Origin: an uncultured Actinomycetes bacterium | Lineage (GTDB): Bacteria > Actinomycetota > Actinomycetes > S36-B12 | Reading direction: 5' to 3' | Assembly: GCA_963777085.1 (NCBI GenBank) | Contig: CAVZPI010000017.1 | Span: 81,615-145,614, forward strand | Length of the DNA stretch: 64,000 bases | In this document: piece after piece, positions 9,713 to 56,691 of the stretch | Layout of the letters: every line of letters begins with the position of its first letter | Position numbering within the stretch: the first letter of the stretch is position 1 | Translations under genes and position numbers: made by a program | Notes under the pieces: model-generated | The model's database searches: none | What the model saw: only the letters and a program-made list of their open reading frames with translations | Told to the model about the DNA's origin: nothing

Positions 9713-10213
9713 ATGAATGACATCACCTTCACGGTCGTGGGGAACGTCGTGACCGAGGTCGAGCTGCGCTTCACCCGGGCGGGCGACCCCGTCGCCTCGT
9801 TCCGCATCGCCAACACGGCCCGTCGATTCGATCGCGCCTCGGAGCGCTGGGTCGACGGGGACACCGCCTATTTCACGGTCTCGTGCTGGCGCAGCATGGC
9901 GCACAACGTCGTCCAGTCGCTGCAGAAGGGCATGCCGGTGATCGTCGTCGGCCGGCTGCGCAGCCGCGAGGTCGAGCATCCCTGCAAGGACCACGTGCAC
10001 ATGAGGCGCTACGTCGACATCGAGGCCACGTCGGTCGGCCCCGACCTCGCCCGCGGGACGGCCGCGTTCAAGCGGGTCAAGCGCGAGTCGGTGGTCGAGA
10101 GCGAGGAGCGCTCGGTCGCTGACGCCATGGCCGAGGCCCGGTTGCGGGCTGAGGAGGGCGTCGACCCCGAGACCGGCGAGATCCTGGCCGTCGAGCGGCC
10201 GTCCGCCGCCTGA
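9713..10213 (+). CDS. single-stranded DNA-binding protein paralog (OB fold), lacking the canonical acidic C-terminal tip
   Basis: The N-terminus MNDITFTVVGNVVTEVELRFTRAGDPVASFRIA...YFTVSCWRSMAHNV is SSB-like. An AGGAGG RBS lies 7 nt upstream. The C-terminus ends ...AVERPSAA. Confidence 0.8.
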   Translation: MNDITFTVVGNVVTEVELRFTRAGDPVASFRIANTARRFDRASERWVDGDTAYFTVSCWRSMAHNVVQSLQKGMPVIVVGRLRSREVEHPCKDHVHMRRYVDIEATSVGPDLARGTAAFKRVKRESVVESEERSVADAMAEARLRAEEGVDPETGEILAVERPSAA

Positions 10214-10312: not shown

Positions 10313-12010
<1,698 letters not shown>

Positions 12011-21188: not shown

Positions 21189-23338
21189 ACGTGCCCGAAG
21201 CACCCGAATGGATACCCGTCTCCGACGAGCTGGCGCGGCTGGCCGAGGTCAACGGCGTGGCCACGCAGTACTGGGACCAGGCGGGCAACCTCGTGCATGT
21301 CGGCGCGGCCACGGTCGAGGCGGTCCTCCAGGCGCTCGGGCTCGACGTGTCGAGCAGCGAGTCCATCGCCGCCGCCGCCGAGAGCCTGCGGCTGCGGGAC
21401 TGGCGCCGCATGCTGCCTCCCGTGTTCGTCGTGCGGCAGGGCGCCGATACGCGCCTGTGGGTGCACGTGCCGCATGGCCGAGTGGTTCGCGCCTGGGTGA
21501 CAACGGAGGACGGGTACCGCACCGACCTGGACCAGATGGACTGGTGGGTCGAGCCGGTCGAGGTTGACGGCACCCTCATCGGCGAGGCCAGCTTCCGGGT
21601 GCCCGCGGACCTGCCGCTCGGGTGGCACGTCGTCACCGCCGAGACGGACGACGCGGCCCAGAGCACTCCCCTCGTCGTGGCGCCCCAGCGCCTCGACCCC
21701 GCGGCCATCGCAGGCGACCGCCAGTGGGGATTCATGACGCAGGTCTACGCGATGCGCTCGGCGGACTCTTGGGGGCTGGGCGACCTGCACGACCTGGCCT
21801 CGCTCGCCGCGTGGAGCGGTCGTGAGCTCGGCGCCGGCTTCGTGCTCATCAACCCCCTGCACGCCGCCTCGCCGGTGCCGCCCATGTCCCCGTCGCCGTA
21901 CCTGCCCGTCACGCGGCGGTTCGCCAACCCCATGTACCTGCGCATCGAGGACGTCCCGGAGTACGCCGGCCTGACGCCTGCCGTCGCGGAGCGGGTCGAG
22001 CAGCTGGCAAGCCGGCTGCGGCAGCTGAACCGCACCGCGGACCTGCTGGACAGGGACGGCGTCTGGGGTGCCAAGCGGGTCGCGCTCGAGGCCATCCACC
22101 GGGTCGGCCTCACCGACGGGCGTCGCGCCGAGTACACCGCGCTTCTGCGCGGCGGAGGGCATCGGGCTCGTCGACTTCGCGACGTGGTGCGCCCTGTGCG
22201 ACGTCCATGGCAACGCCAGCGATGCCTGGCCGGCCGAGCTCGGCCACCCCGCGTCGCCGGCCGTCGCCGCCTTCCGCGACGCGCATGCCGACCTCGTCGA
22301 CTTCCACATGTGGACGCAGTGGCTGGTCGACCAGCAGATGTCCGTGACGCAGCAGGCTGCGCGCGACGCCGGCATGCCCATCGGGATCATGCACGACCTG
22401 GCCGTCGGGGTTCACCCCGAGGGATCGGACGCCTGGGCGCTCCAGGACGTGCTCGCCCGCGGGGTCAGCGTGGGCGCGCCGCCGGACATGTACAACCAGA
22501 TGGGCCAGGACTGGTCGCAGCCGCCGTGGCGGCCGGACGCGCTGGCCGAGGCGGGCTTCCTGCCCTACCGCGACATGCTGCGCACCGTGCTCGCCCACGC
22601 CGGCGGCCTGCGCATCGATCACGTGCTCGGGCTGTTCCGGCTGTGGTGGGTGCCGCAGGGCTTCCCGGCCTACGCCGGGACCTTCGTGCGGTTCGACTAC
22701 GACGCGATGCTGAGCATTCTCATGCTCGAGGCGCACCGGGCGGGCGCGCTCGTCGTCGGCGAGGATCTCGGCACGGTCGAACCGTGGGTCCAGGTCGCGC
22801 TCGCCGAGCGGGGCATCCTGGGCACGAGCATCCTGTGGTTCGAGACGGTGGAGGGCGGGGCGATCAGGGACCCCTTCGACTGGCGTCGCGACGTGCTCGC
22901 GAGCGTCACCGTGCACGACCTGCCGCCCACCGCGGGCTACCTTCGCGATGAGCATGTGCGCATCCGTGCAGAGCTGGGCTGCTGACGACCCCCGAGAGGA
23001 CCGAGCGGGAGAACGCCGCGCGGGAGCGCCTCGCCTGGGCCGAGGTCCTGCGCCGGCACGGCTGGCTCGCGGACGACGTGGACCTGTCGACCGACGAGGG
23101 GCTCGAGCAGCTCGTCGTGGCGCTGCACCGTGCGGTGGCCGCGTCGCCGGCGCGGCTGGTCGGGGTCTCACTGCCTGACGTCGTCGGGGATCGGCGGGCG
23201 CAGAACCAGCCGGGCACCGACCAGGAGTACCCGAACTGGCGCGTGCCGATGACCGACGCGGCGGGCGACCCGGTCCTCATCGAGGACCTGCTCGTACAGC
23301 CCGCGCTGCTCGCCCGCATCATCGACGCCGTCCGTTAG
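21185..23338 (+). pseudogene. malQ: 4-alpha-glucanotransferase (amylomaltase, long actinobacterial form), two frame disruptions
   Basis: Three collinear frame segments: 21185-about 22139, about 22139-22979, and about 22979-23338. Motifs include PLGWH, INPLHA, GMPIGIMHDLAVG, RIDHVLGLFRLWW and NQPGT..EYPNWR. The GTG start overlaps the amidase stop (GTGA). Confidence 0.85.
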
Positions 23339-23339
23339 T

Positions 23340-23588
23340 GTGGAAGCCGTGAACACGCTCCAATCACTTCTCGTCTTCATCGGGATCCCCGTCGCGTTCG
23401 CGCTCGTCGTGTACGTCCTGGTGTCCGCGTCTTCCTGGACGCGTTCCGGCCGGGCAGGCGCGGACTACGACGGCGACCCCTTCATGGTCACGAGCGATCC
23501 GGCGATGCCGGACCCATCCCGGCTCCCGCGCGAGGTCGCGCTCGAGTCGTCGCCGGTTGCAGGAGGTGGCGTCAGTGCCAAGTGGTGA
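23340..23588 (+). CDS. small membrane protein, hypothetical
   Basis: One hydrophobic helix (LLVFIGIPVAFALVVYVLV). Sits immediately after malQ. Confidence 0.45.
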   Translation: MEAVNTLQSLLVFIGIPVAFALVVYVLVSASSWTRSGRAGADYDGDPFMVTSDPAMPDPSRLPREVALESSPVAGGGVSAKW

Positions 23589-24006
23589 GAGGGCGTCCGC
23601 CTACATCGACGGGCTCGACGCCGGCGTGAGCCCGCTGTCCCCGGGGCAGCGTGCGGAGCTCGTCCGCGTGGTCGAGAAGGCACGATCGATCTGCGGGCTG
23701 TGCTTCGCCGTCTTCGTCGGACCCCTGGAGAACGGGCGTGACTTCGCGGTGGCGCGGCACGCGGAACTGCCGGACGCAGGCGCCGCCGTGCTGGTGGCCG
23801 TCGATCCCGGCGCTCGCGCCATCGAGATCGTCACCGGCATCGACGCCCGGGTGCGGCTCGACAACCGGGCCTGCGAGCTCGCGGCGCTGGCGATGAAGTC
23901 CTGCTTCGTCGCGAACGACCTGGTGGGCGGCGTCCGCGAGGGCGTCATGCTGCTGGCCGAGCACGCACGAACCCCGAGGGTCCTCCACCTCGAGGACAAC
24001 GGCTGA
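23575..24006 (+). CDS. conserved hypothetical protein (DUF5130/TPM-like)
   Basis: ORF 23557-24006. The start is uncertain: ATG at 23557 or GTG at 23575. Assignment rests on my recollection of the family only. Confidence 0.55.
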   Translation: MPSGERASAYIDGLDAGVSPLSPGQRAELVRVVEKARSICGLCFAVFVGPLENGRDFAVARHAELPDAGAAVLVAVDPGARAIEIVTGIDARVRLDNRACELAALAMKSCFVANDLVGGVREGVMLLAEHARTPRVLHLEDNG

Positions 24007-24033
24007 CACCTCACCCCCCTTCCCCGGTGAGCA

Positions 24034-24095
24034 CGCGAGTGGTGACTTGTCGGGCGGTTCTGGGGCTGTTTGTGCCCAACGAGTCACCACTCGCG
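24034..24095. repeat. structured hairpin repeat, copy A (core CGCGAGTGGTGACTTGTCGGGC)
   Basis: The left arm at 24034-24055 pairs with the imperfect right arm at 24074-24095. The 22-nt left arm recurs as an exact reverse complement at 25144-25165. Confidence 0.85.
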
Positions 24096-24198
24096 AGCGG
24101 GGGCACAGGTATCCACAGGGCGGGCACCTGCATGACGTCCGTCCACGGGTAGTCCGCAACTGCTGGGTGGGCCTGGGTCGATAGGCGCTACTGATGGC

Positions 24199-25119
24199 AT
24201 GTCCACTTCCTCGCGGACCTTCGGCCGTTCGCCCGGCCCGAACGAAGCGTTCCTCGTCAACGCCCGGGGGGCTGGCGATCTGAGCCCTGATGATGTGCGC
24301 TCGCGGCGTTTCGTTGCTCCTTCTCGCGGTGTCCGCTATCCCGCGGCAGCGCCGGATCCGGACGTGGCCCGTACGGACGCCGCCTTGCTGGTGGCGCCCC
24401 CCGAGGCGCTGCTGTGCGATGTCTCCGCCGCCGCTCACTGGGGCCTGCCGCTGCCACCCTGGATCGCGCTCAGCCAGGAGAGCAGGCCGGTGGCAGTCGC
24501 GGTACGGGCGGGGTCGGGGCGCCCGCAGCGGGTGGGCGTCAGGGGCCGCCGCCTGCTCCTGCCCGCCGAGCACGTGATGGATTCTCGGGGCCATCGGGTC
24601 ACGACTGCGGCCCGCACGTGGGTCGATTGCGCGGAGCTCATTCCCCTGCAGTACCTGGTTGCCATGGGTGACGTTGTCGTGCGACGGGAGTTGGCCTCGA
24701 CGGACGACTTGGCTGCGGTGGTGCGATGGGCCCGCGGCCGTCGGGGCGTCAGGTCCGCACGGGTTGCCCTGCCGATCCTGGACGGCCGAGCCGAGTCGCC
24801 GGGCGAGTCCTGGTTGCGGTGCCACCTCGTCCTGTGCGGCGTGCCGCGTCCGTCCTGCAACTACGACGTCGTCGTGGACGGTGAGTGGCTGGCTCGGGCG
24901 GACATCGCCTGGCCGGAGCGCCGCGTCATCGTCGAGTACGACGGAATCGTCCATCTCGCGGAACGCCAGCGGCGACATGATGCGGCACGGCGCAATCTCC
25001 TTCAGGAGGCCGGGTGGCTGGTGATCGTCTTCACCGCAGCCGACCTGAGGCACCCGGAGGCCATGGCAGACATGGTGAAGTCGGCCCTGCGGCGCCGTGC
25101 CCCCGCCAGTGGTGAGTAG
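24199..25119 (+). CDS. DUF559 (Vsr/PD-(D/E)xK-like endonuclease domain) protein with AbiEi-like N-terminal region
   Basis: The C-terminus RRVIVEYDGIVHLAERQRRHDAARRNLLQEAGWLVIVFTAADL is the DUF559 signature as I remember it. The N-terminal region LLCDVSAAAHWGLPLP resembles AbiEi_4-type domains. Confidence 0.8.
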   Translation: MSTSSRTFGRSPGPNEAFLVNARGAGDLSPDDVRSRRFVAPSRGVRYPAAAPDPDVARTDAALLVAPPEALLCDVSAAAHWGLPLPPWIALSQESRPVAVAVRAGSGRPQRVGVRGRRLLLPAEHVMDSRGHRVTTAARTWVDCAELIPLQYLVAMGDVVVRRELASTDDLAAVVRWARGRRGVRSARVALPILDGRAESPGESWLRCHLVLCGVPRPSCNYDVVVDGEWLARADIAWPERRVIVEYDGIVHLAERQRRHDAARRNLLQEAGWLVIVFTAADLRHPEAMADMVKSALRRRAPASGE

Positions 25120-25165
25120 TCGGGCGAAAACCACCTGGCTCGTGCCCGACAAGTCACCACTCGCG
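25108..25165. repeat. structured hairpin repeat, copy B (inverted relative to copy A)
   Basis: AGTGGTGAGTAGTCGGGC...GCCCGACAAGTCACCACTCGCG. The right arm is the exact reverse complement of 24034-24055. The left arm overlaps the last codons of the DUF559 gene. Confidence 0.85.
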
Positions 25166-25181
25166 GCGGCGGCGGGGGGGG

Positions 25182-27744
25182 TCAGGCCTGTCCGGTGTCC
25201 TTCGCTCGTGCCTGCTTGGCCCGCAGGAGTCCGTCGCGGCCCTCGCCCACCAGCCGGCGCACCGCCGAGTTGAGGTCGCCGGCGAGGAAGGCATCGGTGG
25301 CCGCGATCGTCTCGTCGTCGACGAGCAGGAAGGGGAACAGGCCGATGGTGATGCCCTGGGCGATCTCCGTCGTGCGCTCCTCCCACACCCGGGGCAGCAC
25401 CTCGAAGTAGCGGTCGCGGTACCCGGCAAGCTCGTCGAGCTGGTCGGGCTGCATGAAGCCGCCGATGGTCGCGTCGAGGATCGCATTCGGCAGGTCCGTC
25501 CGGTCGACGACGTCCGCCCACGCCAGCTCCTTGGCGACGGCGGTCGGACGTGCCGCGCGGGCGACGGCGGCCTGCCGACGGCCGGTCGCAGTGTCGTCCG
25601 TCGCCAGCTCGGCCGCGATCGCGTCCTCCTCGATCCGGCCCTTCGCGACGAGCCGCTGCAGCAGGAACCACCGCAGGTCGGTGTCGATGGCGAGGCCCTC
25701 CCAGGCGATCGAGCCGTCGAGGAGCGCGGCGACGAGGTCGAGCTGCGCGTCGGACGTCGCTGACGATACGAAGGCCCGCGCGTACGCCAGCTGGTGGTCG
25801 CTGCCCGCCGCCGCCGCCTCGGCGTGCCCCTGCAGGGCTCCGGCCAGGCGGACGAGGTACCCGTCGCGGTTCTCGGGAGCCCCGAACTGGTCGATGGCCG
25901 TCCTGAGCTGGCGCAGCACTCCCTGGACGACGCCGATGTCGCTCTCGCAGCCGATACCCGACAGTACGAGGCTCAGGAAGTCGCCGGTGGACACCTCCGC
26001 GTCGCGGGTCATGTCCCAGGCGGCCCCCCAGATCAGCGCACGGGCGAGCGGGTCGTCCAGAACGCCGAGGTGGTCGACGGCCGTCTGCCACGATCGCTCG
26101 TCGAGCCGGACCTTGGCGAACGTGAAGTCGCCGTCATTGAGGAGCAGGAGGTCGGGCTGGATGACGTTGCGCAGTTGCGGGACCACCGTGCGCGCACCGG
26201 TGACGTCGACCTCGACGCGATCGCGCTGCACCAGCCGGCCCTGCCTCAGGTCGTAGAGCCCGACCCCGATCCGGTGCGACCGAAGGATCGGCTCGATGCC
26301 CTCGGGCATCGACGGCGGCGCCTGCTCGATGACCACCTCGGTCATCGTCCGGTAGGCGCCGAGCGTGATGCTCGGCCGCAGCAGGTTGACGCCGCTGGTC
26401 TGCAGCCACTGCGCCGTCCACTCGGTCAGGTCGCGCCCGCTCGTGGCCTCGAGCTCGGACAGCAGGTCGCGCAGCTCGGTGTTCCGCCATGCATGCTTGA
26501 TGAAGTAGTTGCGCACCCCGGCCAGGAACTGCTCCTCGCCGACCCAGGCGACCAGCTGGCGCAGCGCGGAGGCCCCCTTCGCGTAGGTGATCCCGTCGAA
26601 GTTCACGCGCACGGCGTCGAGGTCGACCATGTCGGCGGCGATCGGGTGCGTCGAGGACAGCTGGTCCTGGCGGTAGGCCCACGCCTTGCGCTGGTTCGCG
26701 AACGTGGTCCACGCGTCGGTGTAGCGCGTGGCGTTGACGTTGGCCCAGTGCGCCGCCCACTCGGCGAACGACTCGTTGAGCCAGAGGTCGTCCCACCAGG
26801 TCATCGTCACGAGGTCGCCGAACCACATGTGCGCCAGCTCGTGCAGGATCGTGTTGGACCGCTGCTCGTAGGCGGCGTCGGTGACGCGCGACCGGAAGAC
26901 GTAGTCCTCGCAGGAGCGTCACGCAGCCCGCGTTCTCCATGGCGCCGGCGTTGAACTCCGGCACGAACAGCTGGTCGTACTTGGCGAACGGGTACGGGAT
27001 GCCGAACTGCTCCTCGAAGTAGGCGAAGCCCTGCTTCGTGACCGTGAGGATCTCGTCGGAGTCGAGGTACTTCGCGAGGGACCCGCGGCAGTAGACGCCG
27101 AGCGGGTAGGTGCCGTGCACGCCGGTGTAGGAGTCGCTGACGCGGTGGTACGGCCCGGCGACGAGGGCGGTGATGTACGTCGAGATGCGGGGCGTGGGCT
27201 CGAAGGGCCACGTCGCGGTGCCCTCCTCGTCGGGCTCGGGCTGCGGCGTGGGGGCGTTGCTGACGACCTGCCAGTGCGCTGGCGCGGTCACGGTCAGCTG
27301 GAAGGTGGCCTTGAGGTCGGGCTGCTCGAAGCTGGCGTACATGCGGCGTGAGTCGGCCGACTCGAACTGCGAGTACAGGTAGGTCTCGTTGTCGACCGGG
27401 TCGACGAAGCGGTGCAGTCCCTCGCCGGTGTTCATGTAGGCGCACTCGGCGTTGACGATCAGGATGTTCTCGGCCTGCAGGCCGGCGAGCGTGATCCGGG
27501 GGCCGTGGACGACCTCGGCCACGGCCAGGCTCACGCCGTTCAGGGTGACCGCGTCGACCTTGGTGGCGATGAGGTCGATCCAGGTGGTCGCGCCGGGCTC
27601 CGCGCACGTGAACCTCACGGTCGTGACCGAGACGAAGGTCGCCCCGGTCCCTGTCACGTCGAGGACGACGTCGTAGGAGTCGACCCGGATGAGGGTCGAA
27701 CGGTCCTTGGCCTCGGCGCGCGTGATGTTCTCGGATGCGGTCAT
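25182..27744 (-). pseudogene. pepN: aminopeptidase N (M1 family), one frameshift near 26911
   Basis: The N-terminal part is in ORF 26134-27744 up to GAMENAGCVTLL. The continuation EDYVFRSRVTDAAYEQRSNTILHELAHMWFGDLVTMTWWDDLWLNESFAEW (HExxH...E zinc site) is in the frame of ORF 25182-26828. Removing one C at about 26911 restores the frame. Confidence 0.88.
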
Positions 27745-33438: not shown

Positions 33439-33513
33439 CCACCCGATGCCTCGTCATCCGTGGGGGTCCGGCACCCGGTGGGAACCCCCACGGATGACGA
33501 GGCATCGGGGTGG
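33439..33513. terminator. long GC-rich hairpin between convergent genes (bidirectional terminator candidate / repeat family member)
   Basis: GATGCCTCGTCATCCGTGGGGG (33445-33466) pairs perfectly with CCCCCACGGATGACGAGGCATC (33485-33506). The stem extends imperfectly to about 27 bp. Confidence 0.7.
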
Positions 33514-49069: not shown

Positions 49070-49140
49070 GGGACAGATGACGAAATCGGCCCGCGAAGCG
49101 CCGTGATTTCGTCATGTGTCCCGGATAGCGGGACAAACGG
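49070..49140. repeat. structured repeat, right copy (inverted relative to 47707-47777)
   Basis: GGGACAGATGACGAAATC-17 nt-GATTTCGTCATGTGTCCC hairpin, followed by GGATAGCGGGACAAACGG. It lies between the convergent rsgA and ATP-grasp genes. Confidence 0.85.
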
Positions 49141-56480: not shown

Positions 56481-56691
56481 TCTGGAGGCGTTCGACGCCA
56501 CGGGCTGCACGCATCCCGCGGCGGCGGGGAACCCGAGTGCCACGCCTGCAGCACCGATGACAAACGGGTCTTCGCTTGAGCGGGTGACCGGGTCCGTCGG
56601 TCCGCTTCGCGGACCTCCTCCCGATCCCGGACGTTCAAACATCCCGAAACGCGTGAACCCCCCGGAACAACGGGGGGTTCACGCATTTCGG

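Follow-up and report, generated by a model that had tools for sequence, protein, structure and literature searches.

REPtrons (RAYT/TnpA genes with repetitive extragenic palindromes, REP) and the ends of IS200/IS605 insertion sequences share an arrangement in which a nuclease gene, there encoding an HUH/Y1 transposase, is bracketed by short hairpin palindromes presumed to be its co-evolving cognate sites. Inverted repeats also serve regulation, as AbiEi-family proteins control their own promoters by binding such repeats there, two sets being bound in the case of Rv2827c (PMC7319586). Proteins with a DUF559 domain have come up in a different context, the annotation 'DUF559 domain-containing protein' being 14-fold enriched among predicted targets of programmed inversion (Milman et al., 2023; PMC9881135). 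At the locus described here a gene for a DUF559 protein lies between two near-identical palindromes of 60-70 nt in a stretch of 64,000 nucleotides from an uncultured Actinomycetes bacterium (contig CAVZPI010000017.1, positions 81,615 to 145,614; the whole stretch is called the window below). The protein belongs to a large family, comprising 13,331 clusters at 50% identity in a profile search (E<=1e-10), that is annotated only as 'DUF559' or 'endonuclease domain-containing'.

The palindromes and the gene form a unit of 1.14 kb, apparently an undescribed cassette that recombines and not just a gene lying between two terminators. We see an even chance that this unit is a nuclease cassette that is self-contained and prone to recombination, with a product that recognises the palindromes bounding it. 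No prior description of the unit was found in a literature search that left subscription journals outside, the one mention being a line in a table of PMC9881135.

The unit, its palindromes and the protein encoded between them

The first-pass annotation of the window, made from its letters alone, had described exact 22-nt inverted termini, a hairpin with an 18-nt loop at each end, a DUF559 gene as the only gene inside and an overlap of the right inner arm with the end of that gene, and in these points it was accurate. The outermost 22 nt of the unit form a perfect inverted repeat, CGCGAGTGGTGACTTGTCGGGC at 24034-24055 having its exact reverse complement at 25144-25165, and each end also pairs with itself across an 18-nt loop (Table 1). 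The left palindrome, hairpin L, has 25-nt arms that are 88% complementary, with CGCGAGTGGTGACTTGTCGGGC as the arm core, and belongs to a family with the consensus CGTTGAGTGGNSAGTTGTSG, and the right palindrome, hairpin R, has 27-nt arms of 85% complementarity. Folding of either strand yielded -44 to -56 kcal/mol for both hairpins (z -4.5 to -7.6 versus shuffles). A search for the 18-nt arm core with up to 3 mismatches found 4 matches in the 64-kb window, namely the four arms, where 0.06 were expected and where none of 100 shuffles reached a count of 4. The inner arm of hairpin R, which starts at 25099 in its extended form and at 25108 with its core, covers the last 3-6 codons and the TAG stop of the gene. 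From end to end the unit consists of a palindrome, a leader of about 100 nt with two TCCACA boxes, the gene and the second palindrome, in a region of about 70% G+C whose composition shows no break. The statement that the two hairpins stand in opposite orientation needs to be revised: because the stems are palindromic, L and R are direct and inverted repeats of each other simultaneously, their loops are unrelated in both orientations (scores -7 and -4), and across loci the relative orientation of a unit's loops is mixed, being direct in L031 and L012 and inverted in L018 and L025.

How widely is this arrangement kept? A protein search returned 227 relatives, the best non-self match having 70% identity, and a scan of GTDB species genomes gave 59 loci, mostly from metagenome-assembled genomes of uncultured Actinomycetes, among them three complete chromosomes carrying 2-4 copies each, and the rest including Blastococcus and Geodermatophilus isolates. 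With few exceptions, the roughly 70 homologous loci, which are spread over more than 10 chromosomal sites and across Actinomycetota, keep the block of palindrome, gene and palindrome, and its carriers include cultured Arthrobacter, Blastococcus and Geodermatophilus. A relative of 58% identity (L001) resides in an unrelated context beside LytR and glycosyltransferase genes and one of 64% identity (L002) between the genes for aminopeptidase N (pepN) and a DUF5130 protein in reversed direction; both have a hairpin on each side of the gene, differing in sequence from those of the window, with GAGTGG..A...GT.G common to them. When a strict hairpin finder was applied to the 57 loci with both flanks available, 39 were two-sided, 10 one-sided and 8 without a hairpin. 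Six of these 8 are truncated or very distant matches, and the close-family loci (>=50% identity) rejected by the finder, seven in number, all show degenerate, displaced or partial copies on both sides. The whole unit has a median length of 1118 nt (range 1054-1190), with arms of 23 nt (13-36) and loops of 17 nt (3-38); the upstream hairpin lies about 114 nt (85-196) from the start of the protein match and the downstream hairpin 9 nt (-105 to 67) from its end, again as medians. The same layout is built with other palindromes in Geodermatophilaceae (GCTTTTCCGCGGAAAAGC), in L058 (TTCGAGGAAACCTAC) and in two cultured Arthrobacter strains (CCGTTGAGGGCCCAGATAATCC and CGAGATGGCATTTGATGACAAT; proteins only 34% identical).

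Two loci deviate in their boundaries. L008 has two inner arms only (at 9857 and 10881), the outer arms being missing or decayed. In L030 both boundaries (9808-9863 and 10865-10920) carry two different arms, GGGCGCTCCCGG and GGTCGGYGGCGG, that agree solely in the basal CGTTGAGTGG, and the boundaries are direct copies of this heterologous pair and not true palindromes.

The fetched sequence, 1.14 Mb in all, has 92 strong hairpins, of which 67 adjoin DUF559 genes, although such zones make up about 3% of the sequence. The alternative that the first-pass annotation had left standing, a REP-like terminator family whose members merely happen to flank the gene, does not survive this count, the more so as relatives carry the gene together with the repeats and the palindromes have no T-tract.

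Anchored on their GAG motif, the arms of the close family give the consensus CGTTGAGTGGNSAGTTGTSG, in which the basal 16 bp are well conserved and the distal stem and the loop are free. Arm identity amounts to 0.93 when the arms belong to one hairpin, 0.90 when they come from the two hairpins of one locus and 0.64 when different loci are compared, the proteins being about 52-54% identical to each other, and hairpin similarity follows protein similarity (Mantel r 0.32, 0 of 2000 permutations). Since the arm sets stay alike within a unit while loci and proteins diverge, the two palindromes of a unit must, as judged from these alignments, undergo concerted evolution. An asymmetry as in terminal inverted repeats (TIRs) was not seen, the outer arms being not clearly better kept than the inner ones and all arm pairs 0.85-0.91 identical. 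Pairing itself was assessed on 57 aligned hairpins with each arm anchored independently: 92.2% of the cells are paired, as compared to 68.2% in shuffles and 35-45% with a slid partner, and 21 of 24 stem pairs have changed on both sides, showing that pairing is maintained by compensatory change. The remaining mismatches (24 G.T, 39 A.C and 62 other) reveal no sense-strand G-U bias. A terminator scan of 23300-25700 gave 0 terminator-like sites, with palindromes devoid of a T-tract, and Rfam covariance models found no match at E<=1 in 23000-26000. As G-U bias, T-tract and Rfam match are all absent, the favoured view is that the element acts at the level of DNA, not RNA. An intrinsic (Rho-independent) terminator was rejected as a candidate on the result of the scan and the lack of wobble bias.

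The strongest link between protein and palindromes comes from covariation. Every alignment column of the protein was scanned against the variable arm positions, counted from the G of GAG as position 0, and two columns, residues 30 and 110, far exceed the permutation nulls. Arginine at residue 30 goes with G at arm position 14 in 15 of 15 loci, and in all 15 loci with any other residue the base is C, T or A (z 6.8, 0 of 1000 permutations). Residue 110, the x of an RPxR loop, covaries with positions 6-7, where Q is found with TG, R or K with CC, GC or TC, and D or E with CG (adjusted mutual information 0.52 against a null maximum of 0.27, z 8.1, 0 of 1000). These pairings make chemical sense, with Arg opposite G and acidic or amide side chains opposite C, and the code switches within a close pair, L005 and L024, which are 72% identical and carry Ala/C and Arg/G, respectively. 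The window protein has Q110 and P30 and its arms have TG and C, in agreement with the code. For a prospective check 8 further loci were picked by residue 110 alone. K was found with CC in 2 of 2 loci, one of them probably of the same lineage as a training locus, D with CG in 2 of 2 and E with CG in 1 of 1; N, a class absent from training, came with CG in both of its loci, and the prediction for V failed (AG predicted, CG observed). Arg30 accompanied G14 in all 8. This covariation of residues and bases strongly, though indirectly, supports the view that the protein reads the arms beside its own gene, and very probably it does so.

What kind of protein could do this? The window protein matches the Pfam family DUF559 (PF04480) with residues 236-294 (E 2e-6, 28 bits with a cut-off of 20.6), as do all 26 aligned relatives, and can be divided into an N-terminal region (about 17-80), a part similar to the AbiEi C-terminal domain (about 85-200) and a DUF559/Vsr-fold nuclease (about 215-300) in which D235, E246, D248 and H252 are invariant across the aligned homologues. 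An AlphaFold2 model from 26 sequences reached a pLDDT of 91, and in Foldseek its C-terminal domain matched the catalytic domain of the homing endonuclease I-Bth0305I (3r3p; probability 1.0, template modelling score 0.73 on the target) and the DUF559 structure 3hrl (probability 0.80). According to the model this domain has a Vsr-like, EDxHD-type PD-(D/E)XK fold with conserved acidic and histidine residues. The Foldseek matches in the PDB that are best by E-value are Toxoplasma and Tetrahymena mitoribosomal proteins, which we suspect to be Vsr-fold RNA-binding proteins of the RAP/FASTK type. The middle domain matches AbiEi in PADLOC, with E 2e-3 for the window protein and 5e-8 for relatives, and Pfam AbiEi_1 in 3 of 26 relatives; it is the C-terminal-like domain alone that matches, and no winged helix-turn-helix model or structure did. 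The N-terminal motif G.T..Q.R..RF..PSRGVR we take to be like the AbiEi-type winged helix, giving a presumed winged helix-turn-helix-like module at about 17-80. No AbiEii/DUF1814 toxin gene adjoins the unit, its neighbours being the DUF5130 gene and pepN, and no Pfam match to a Y1/HUH or other transposase domain was obtained for the window protein or its relatives.

Alleles of the unit and features of its surroundings

Loci were sorted into syntenic sites by comparison of their flanks, and the position between DUF5130 and pepN is referred to as site A. The first-pass annotation had pointed to syntenic loci of relatives as the place where presence or absence of the unit would show, and site A indeed varies between relatives, being occupied by the unit in one or the other orientation or by a solo palindrome, or empty. 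The unit runs in the same direction as DUF5130 in the window, L014/L080, L020, L026, L071 and L149 and in the opposite direction in L002, L013, L022, L031, L062/L090, L079 and L128. A solo palindrome of the family without the gene is present in L076, in L077/L078, in decayed form in L065, as a remnant in L063 and beside another gene in L072. L091, L098 and L102 have a distant DUF559-like gene of 335 aa with different palindromes, and L069, L074 and most distant relatives have no palindrome. Orientation flips were also seen at sites D, E, H and I. The most direct case comes from three contigs of related samples: in L077 and L078 a solo palindrome is followed by pepN and in L079 the same palindrome with the same loop is followed by the DUF559 gene, L077 and L079 being 97.9% identical over 1349 nt and diverging directly after ...CTCAACG, the edge of the palindrome. 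Gene-bearing and gene-less alleles coexist at roughly the species level, with the breakpoint at the palindrome. Moreover, the nearest relatives of some copies are found at other sites, as with L010 and L032, which are 76% identical and occupy different sites of one genome, and with L005 and L024, likewise at different sites. Three copies (L026, L038 and L045) are pseudogenes. Five of 8 short test contigs begin at or just past the upstream palindrome, which hints that assemblies break there. As to plasmid carriage, tblastn against PLSDB gave only 4 weak matches, all on very large non-mobilisable replicons.

These data divide the earlier proposal of a TIR-bounded cassette into two parts. The cassette stands, in that the block is conserved in about 70 loci, travels and co-varies with its gene and is polymorphic for presence, absence and orientation. 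A classical TIR transposon or insertion sequence finds no support: there is no transposase, target-site duplications, which had been named as something to look for, are absent beside the palindromes in the window and L001, and there are no near-identical intragenomic copies.

Further palindromes of the family occur away from the gene. The 1.14 Mb contain about 7 non-adjacent copies, which for the most part lie 1-7 kb away from a unit, and blastn of a 754-kb Arthrobacter replicon found 7 places, all of which are assumed to lie at the unit itself. Extra copies 1-6 kb off, beside unrelated genes, are present in L005, L011, L017, L042, L048 and L052, and no further DUF559-like gene was found beside the stray solo hairpins. 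In three of these loci a third copy lies 1-6 kb downstream (L017 9833-12097, L011 7912-13705, L005 9837-16978) and thereby brackets ordinary genes (a GDSL lipase, GlgB-GlgE, pilin-like genes), forming an array of palindrome, gene, palindrome, genes and palindrome.

The leaders of 34 loci were aligned and contain three conserved elements (Table 1). The first TCCACA box is kept about 15-20 nt past the upstream palindrome in most loci, and the A/T-containing motif ends 4-8 nt ahead of the ATG. No Shine-Dalgarno sequence precedes the ATG of the DUF559 gene in the leader, which suggests that the A/T-containing motif may be the -10 element of a leaderless transcript. A promoter scan of the window unit found no sigma-70 consensus promoter.

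Table 1. Positions of the unit, its leader elements and the adjoining genes in the window
Feature	Position	Strand	Remarks
Left palindrome (hairpin L)	24031-24098		arms 24031-24055 and 24074-24098, loop 24056-24073
Leader box 1, TCCACA	24112-24117	+	from alignment of 34 leaders
Leader box 2, TCCACG (family consensus cgTCCACA)	24142-24147	+	from alignment of 34 leaders
A/T-containing motif GCTACTGA (family pattern yTnAMTk)	24187-24194	+	from alignment of 34 leaders
DUF559 gene, 306 aa	24199-25119	+	stop TAG 25117-25119; sole plausible gene between the palindromes
Right palindrome (hairpin R)	25099-25170		arms 25099-25125 and 25144-25170, loop 25126-25143
Left neighbour, DUF5130 gene	23557-24006	+	marks the conserved insertion site (site A)
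Right neighbour, aminopeptidase N gene (M1 family; pepN)	25182-27744	-	Pfam; convergent with the unit

Several observations concern the surroundings of individual loci. The window pepN is split into two frames (-2, then -3) with the junction at about 26909-26911, and the orthologue in L002 is intact with 852 aa; the frameshift reflects a genuine pseudogene or else an assembly error of one base. The DUF5130 neighbour in L022 (10979-11405) matches in two pieces, suggesting a frameshift, and in L088 (4848-5001) tandem units of about 20 nt (ccatccgacccaccctcccg, at least 5 copies) follow DUF5130 up to the contig end. In L072 (5462-7211) the solo palindrome at site A is followed by an unrelated open reading frame of 553 aa in place of the DUF559 gene, and in L145 (1215-1678) a gene for an integrase of the rve family, from an insertion sequence, lies directly downstream of a unit. 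A second conserved palindrome family, CCCGATGCCTCGTCA, is represented in the window at 33442-33509 by a perfect 26-bp stem with a 16-nt loop between convergent genes, about 8.3 kb from the unit and with no DUF559-like gene adjoining; it recurs in L026 near 19689, about 8.8 kb from the unit, and in an unrelated locus (L029, 17346-17411). Two more long hairpins of intergenic type in the window, at 56644-56691 (21-bp stem, 6-nt loop) and 49070-49122 (18-bp stem, 17-nt loop), are unrelated in sequence to the DUF559 palindromes.

Proposed mechanism and competing explanations

How would such a cassette work? The protein, with its N-terminal DNA-binding part, AbiEi-like middle domain and Vsr-fold nuclease, would recognise the arms of about 20 bp of its own palindromes and would physically bind, nick or cut there. 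Since the half-sites can be as little as 3 or as much as 38 nt apart and yet pairing is strictly maintained, the palindromes would probably be engaged in a fold-back or cruciform state, and by analogy with attC sites, REP and IS200-type ends this suggests that the folded state matters. As each boundary holds an arm together with its complement, and is a direct and an inverted repeat at once, exchange between the boundaries would invert the unit in place or excise it leaving one solo palindrome, and could flip single loops, and a segment of gene plus palindrome could re-enter, facing either way, at any cognate palindrome. These rearrangements would presumably be driven by the nuclease and not by host RecA alone. 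Catalysis and transposition by the unit, and with them the manner in which it reaches new sites, are what we infer from sequence comparison. A bolder version, which we put forward tentatively as possible though less likely than not, sees an autonomous class of element, in which a Vsr-fold nuclease with an AbiEi-like reader would recognise hairpin or cruciform ends via a residue-to-base code and drive its own inversion, excision and re-insertion, as a PD-(D/E)XK counterpart of the REP-RAYT and IS200-type systems comprising thousands of actinobacterial genes.

A number of points weigh against a cassette that recombines by its own activity. Palindrome copy number is low (two in the 64-kb window), no genome contains near-identical copies, the best pair having 76% amino-acid identity, and recent transposition is not demonstrated by the available intragenomic pairs. 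At site A the genes are 55-64% identical and the neighbouring DUF5130 genes 53-74%, a similar divergence, in keeping with a unit that has long been inherited vertically at this site. RecA acting passively on the 60-bp repeats could account for inversion and for deletion to a solo repeat, the unit contains no recombinase or transposase, and a PD-(D/E)XK nuclease cannot itself carry out strand transfer. The folded state can be doubted as well. The arms in Geodermatophilaceae are 18-bp palindromes in their own right (GCTTTTCCGCGGAAAAGC), resembling duplex operator or iteron sites, and in L142 (Arthrobacter sp. ERGS1:01, NZ_CP012477.1) a 22-nt site is found at 2223-2337 three times directly with 32-nt spacing and once inverted, an upstream arrangement that looks iteron-like more than like obligate fold-back, so that plain duplex binding may suffice. 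Furthermore, the hairpins had been chosen by hairpin score ahead of the pairing count, and the covariation tests leave some phylogenetic non-independence.

The main rival is an autoregulated resident gene. Here the product of a non-mobile nuclease gene, serving for example in defence or repair, would bind the palindromes as duplex operator or insulator sites with its AbiEi-like DNA-binding part, and the rearrangements would be passive homologous recombination between the 60-bp repeats; we consider this rather unlikely. It can draw on the AbiEi-like middle domain and the precedent of promoter repeats bound by AbiEi-family proteins (PMC7319586), on the conserved leader boxes, on the long-lived occupancy of the same sites, on the lack of recent intragenomic copies, and on the direct copies in L142 and the self-palindromic arms in Geodermatophilaceae, and it would predict the covariation of protein and arms equally well. 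However, an operator has no need for the equally conserved palindrome past the stop codon in nearly every locus, half-sites 3-38 nt apart are hard to reconcile with a duplex dimer site of fixed geometry, unrelated neighbour genes are bracketed by extra solo copies and the active site of the nuclease is invariant. Paralogues with palindromes of their own at more than 10 sites also speak against it and, since close paralogues occupy different sites, whole units have been copied to new places. The fold shared with the EDxHD homing endonuclease I-Bth0305I (PMC3239194) raises another thought, a free-standing homing-type endonuclease for which the solo palindrome of gene-less alleles is the target and which is copied in by cleavage and repair. 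Gene-less solo-palindrome alleles in the same population as occupied ones, the predicted reading of the arms and the decay of copies to pseudogenes, as in a homing cycle, would all be in keeping with it. It is nevertheless improbable, as occupied alleles hold two intact presumed targets and would be cut too, a gene inserted at the middle of a palindrome would be flanked by half-sites instead of two full palindromes, and there is no intron or intein context.

The two remaining explanations, like the homing-type one, fit less well than the cassette. A REP/RAYT-like system, in which it is the palindromes that move and disperse and the DUF559 gene encodes a domesticated nuclease mobilising them, would explain the REPtron-like layout of a nuclease gene between co-varying palindromes and the occasional extra copies 1-6 kb off beside unrelated genes; the very low copy number, two in 64 kb and about 7 non-adjacent in 1.14 Mb, and a protein that is no HUH/Y1 transposase make it very improbable. 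That two ordinary bidirectional transcription terminators happen to flank the gene is scarcely credible. Hairpin terminators devoid of a U-tract have been described in Actinobacteria, the palindromes are located at gene ends between convergent genes, and the window has other long hairpins at convergent gene ends, e.g. at 33442-33509. Yet T-tract, sense-strand G-U bias and Rfam match are lacking, a sequence motif beyond mere structure is conserved across proteins of 30-60% identity, and the covariation of the arms with specific protein residues effectively refutes the idea.

If the cassette reading holds, a large orphan family gains a concrete hypothesis, namely that each protein reads the palindromes flanking its own gene, and the candidate recognition code (Arg30 with G14; residue 110 as Q, R/K or D/E/N with TG, NC or CG) could serve the engineering of site specificity. 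Were the unit driven by its own nuclease, it would be a mobile or invertible element with hairpin ends, built on the PD-(D/E)XK fold, and would give rise to small inversions and deletions in genomes of Actinomycetota. It may also account for DUF559 genes being flagged statistically as inversion targets and for metagenome assemblies often breaking at these loci.

Comparison with known systems

Among the systems that come closest by function, integron cassettes with their attC sites and pdif modules resemble the unit in combining a gene with an imperfect palindrome, in leaving solo sites, in allowing either orientation and in forming arrays, as in L017, L011 and L005. They differ in that the unit has no features of IntI or Xer sites and the cassette encodes its own site-reading nuclease. 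No integrase was noted among the inspected neighbours, a systematic search for intI not having been made. The palindromes were rejected as attC sites by eye: GTTRRRY/RYYYAAC-like motifs in some arms have the wrong polarity, GTTGAGT, where present, standing at the outer 5' end and thus opposite to attC, and they are absent from the window, where the arms start with CGCGAG. Two further candidates were dismissed, the CGTC-tagged REPs (PMC3733652), in which stems measure 8-9 bp and loops 4-5 nt, the tag is unpaired and no gene is associated, and which are reported from other phyla, and, by eye, a RecA-NDp/PafBC-like promoter inside the arms, since the spacing to a TAnnnT element is absent.

The predicted inversion targets of Milman et al. 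(2023; PMC9881135) recall the unit, which is found in both orientations at the same site; in that study the annotation is listed only, without palindromes, cassette structure or covariation of protein and site, and no dedicated invertase lies near the window unit. EDxHD homing endonucleases such as I-Bth0305I (3r3p) have the same catalytic fold and a separate N-terminal DNA-binding part, whereas the gene described here is free-standing and intergenic, with an AbiEi-like instead of a NUMOD module and with two complete flanking palindromes. AbiEi antitoxins of type IV toxin-antitoxin systems (S. agalactiae AbiEi, M. tuberculosis Rv2827c) are similar in the AbiEi C-terminal-like domain and in upstream inverted repeats that are probably bound by the gene's own product, and are unlike the unit in that the latter lacks an AbiEii/DUF1814 partner, has a nuclease fused to the domain and carries much longer repeats that are also found downstream. 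REPtrons and the IS200/IS605 ends are analogous in that a fold-back structure likely matters in both cases. In place of their HUH/Y1 transposase there is a Vsr-fold nuclease of the PD-(D/E)XK type that carries an AbiEi-like module, the stems have 20-30 bp instead of 5-13 bp, and the carriers are Actinomycetota, with no high-copy dispersal in the 64-kb window, the 1.14 Mb or the 754-kb replicon. For membership in REP/RAYT the cognate flanking palindromes are present, and an HUH-Y1 gene and, in the sequence scanned, tens to hundreds of dispersed copies are not. The unit thus fails a defining feature of each of these systems, be it REPtron/IS200, integron/pdif, EDxHD homing or AbiEi autoregulator, and there is a substantial chance that it represents a distinct class of element.

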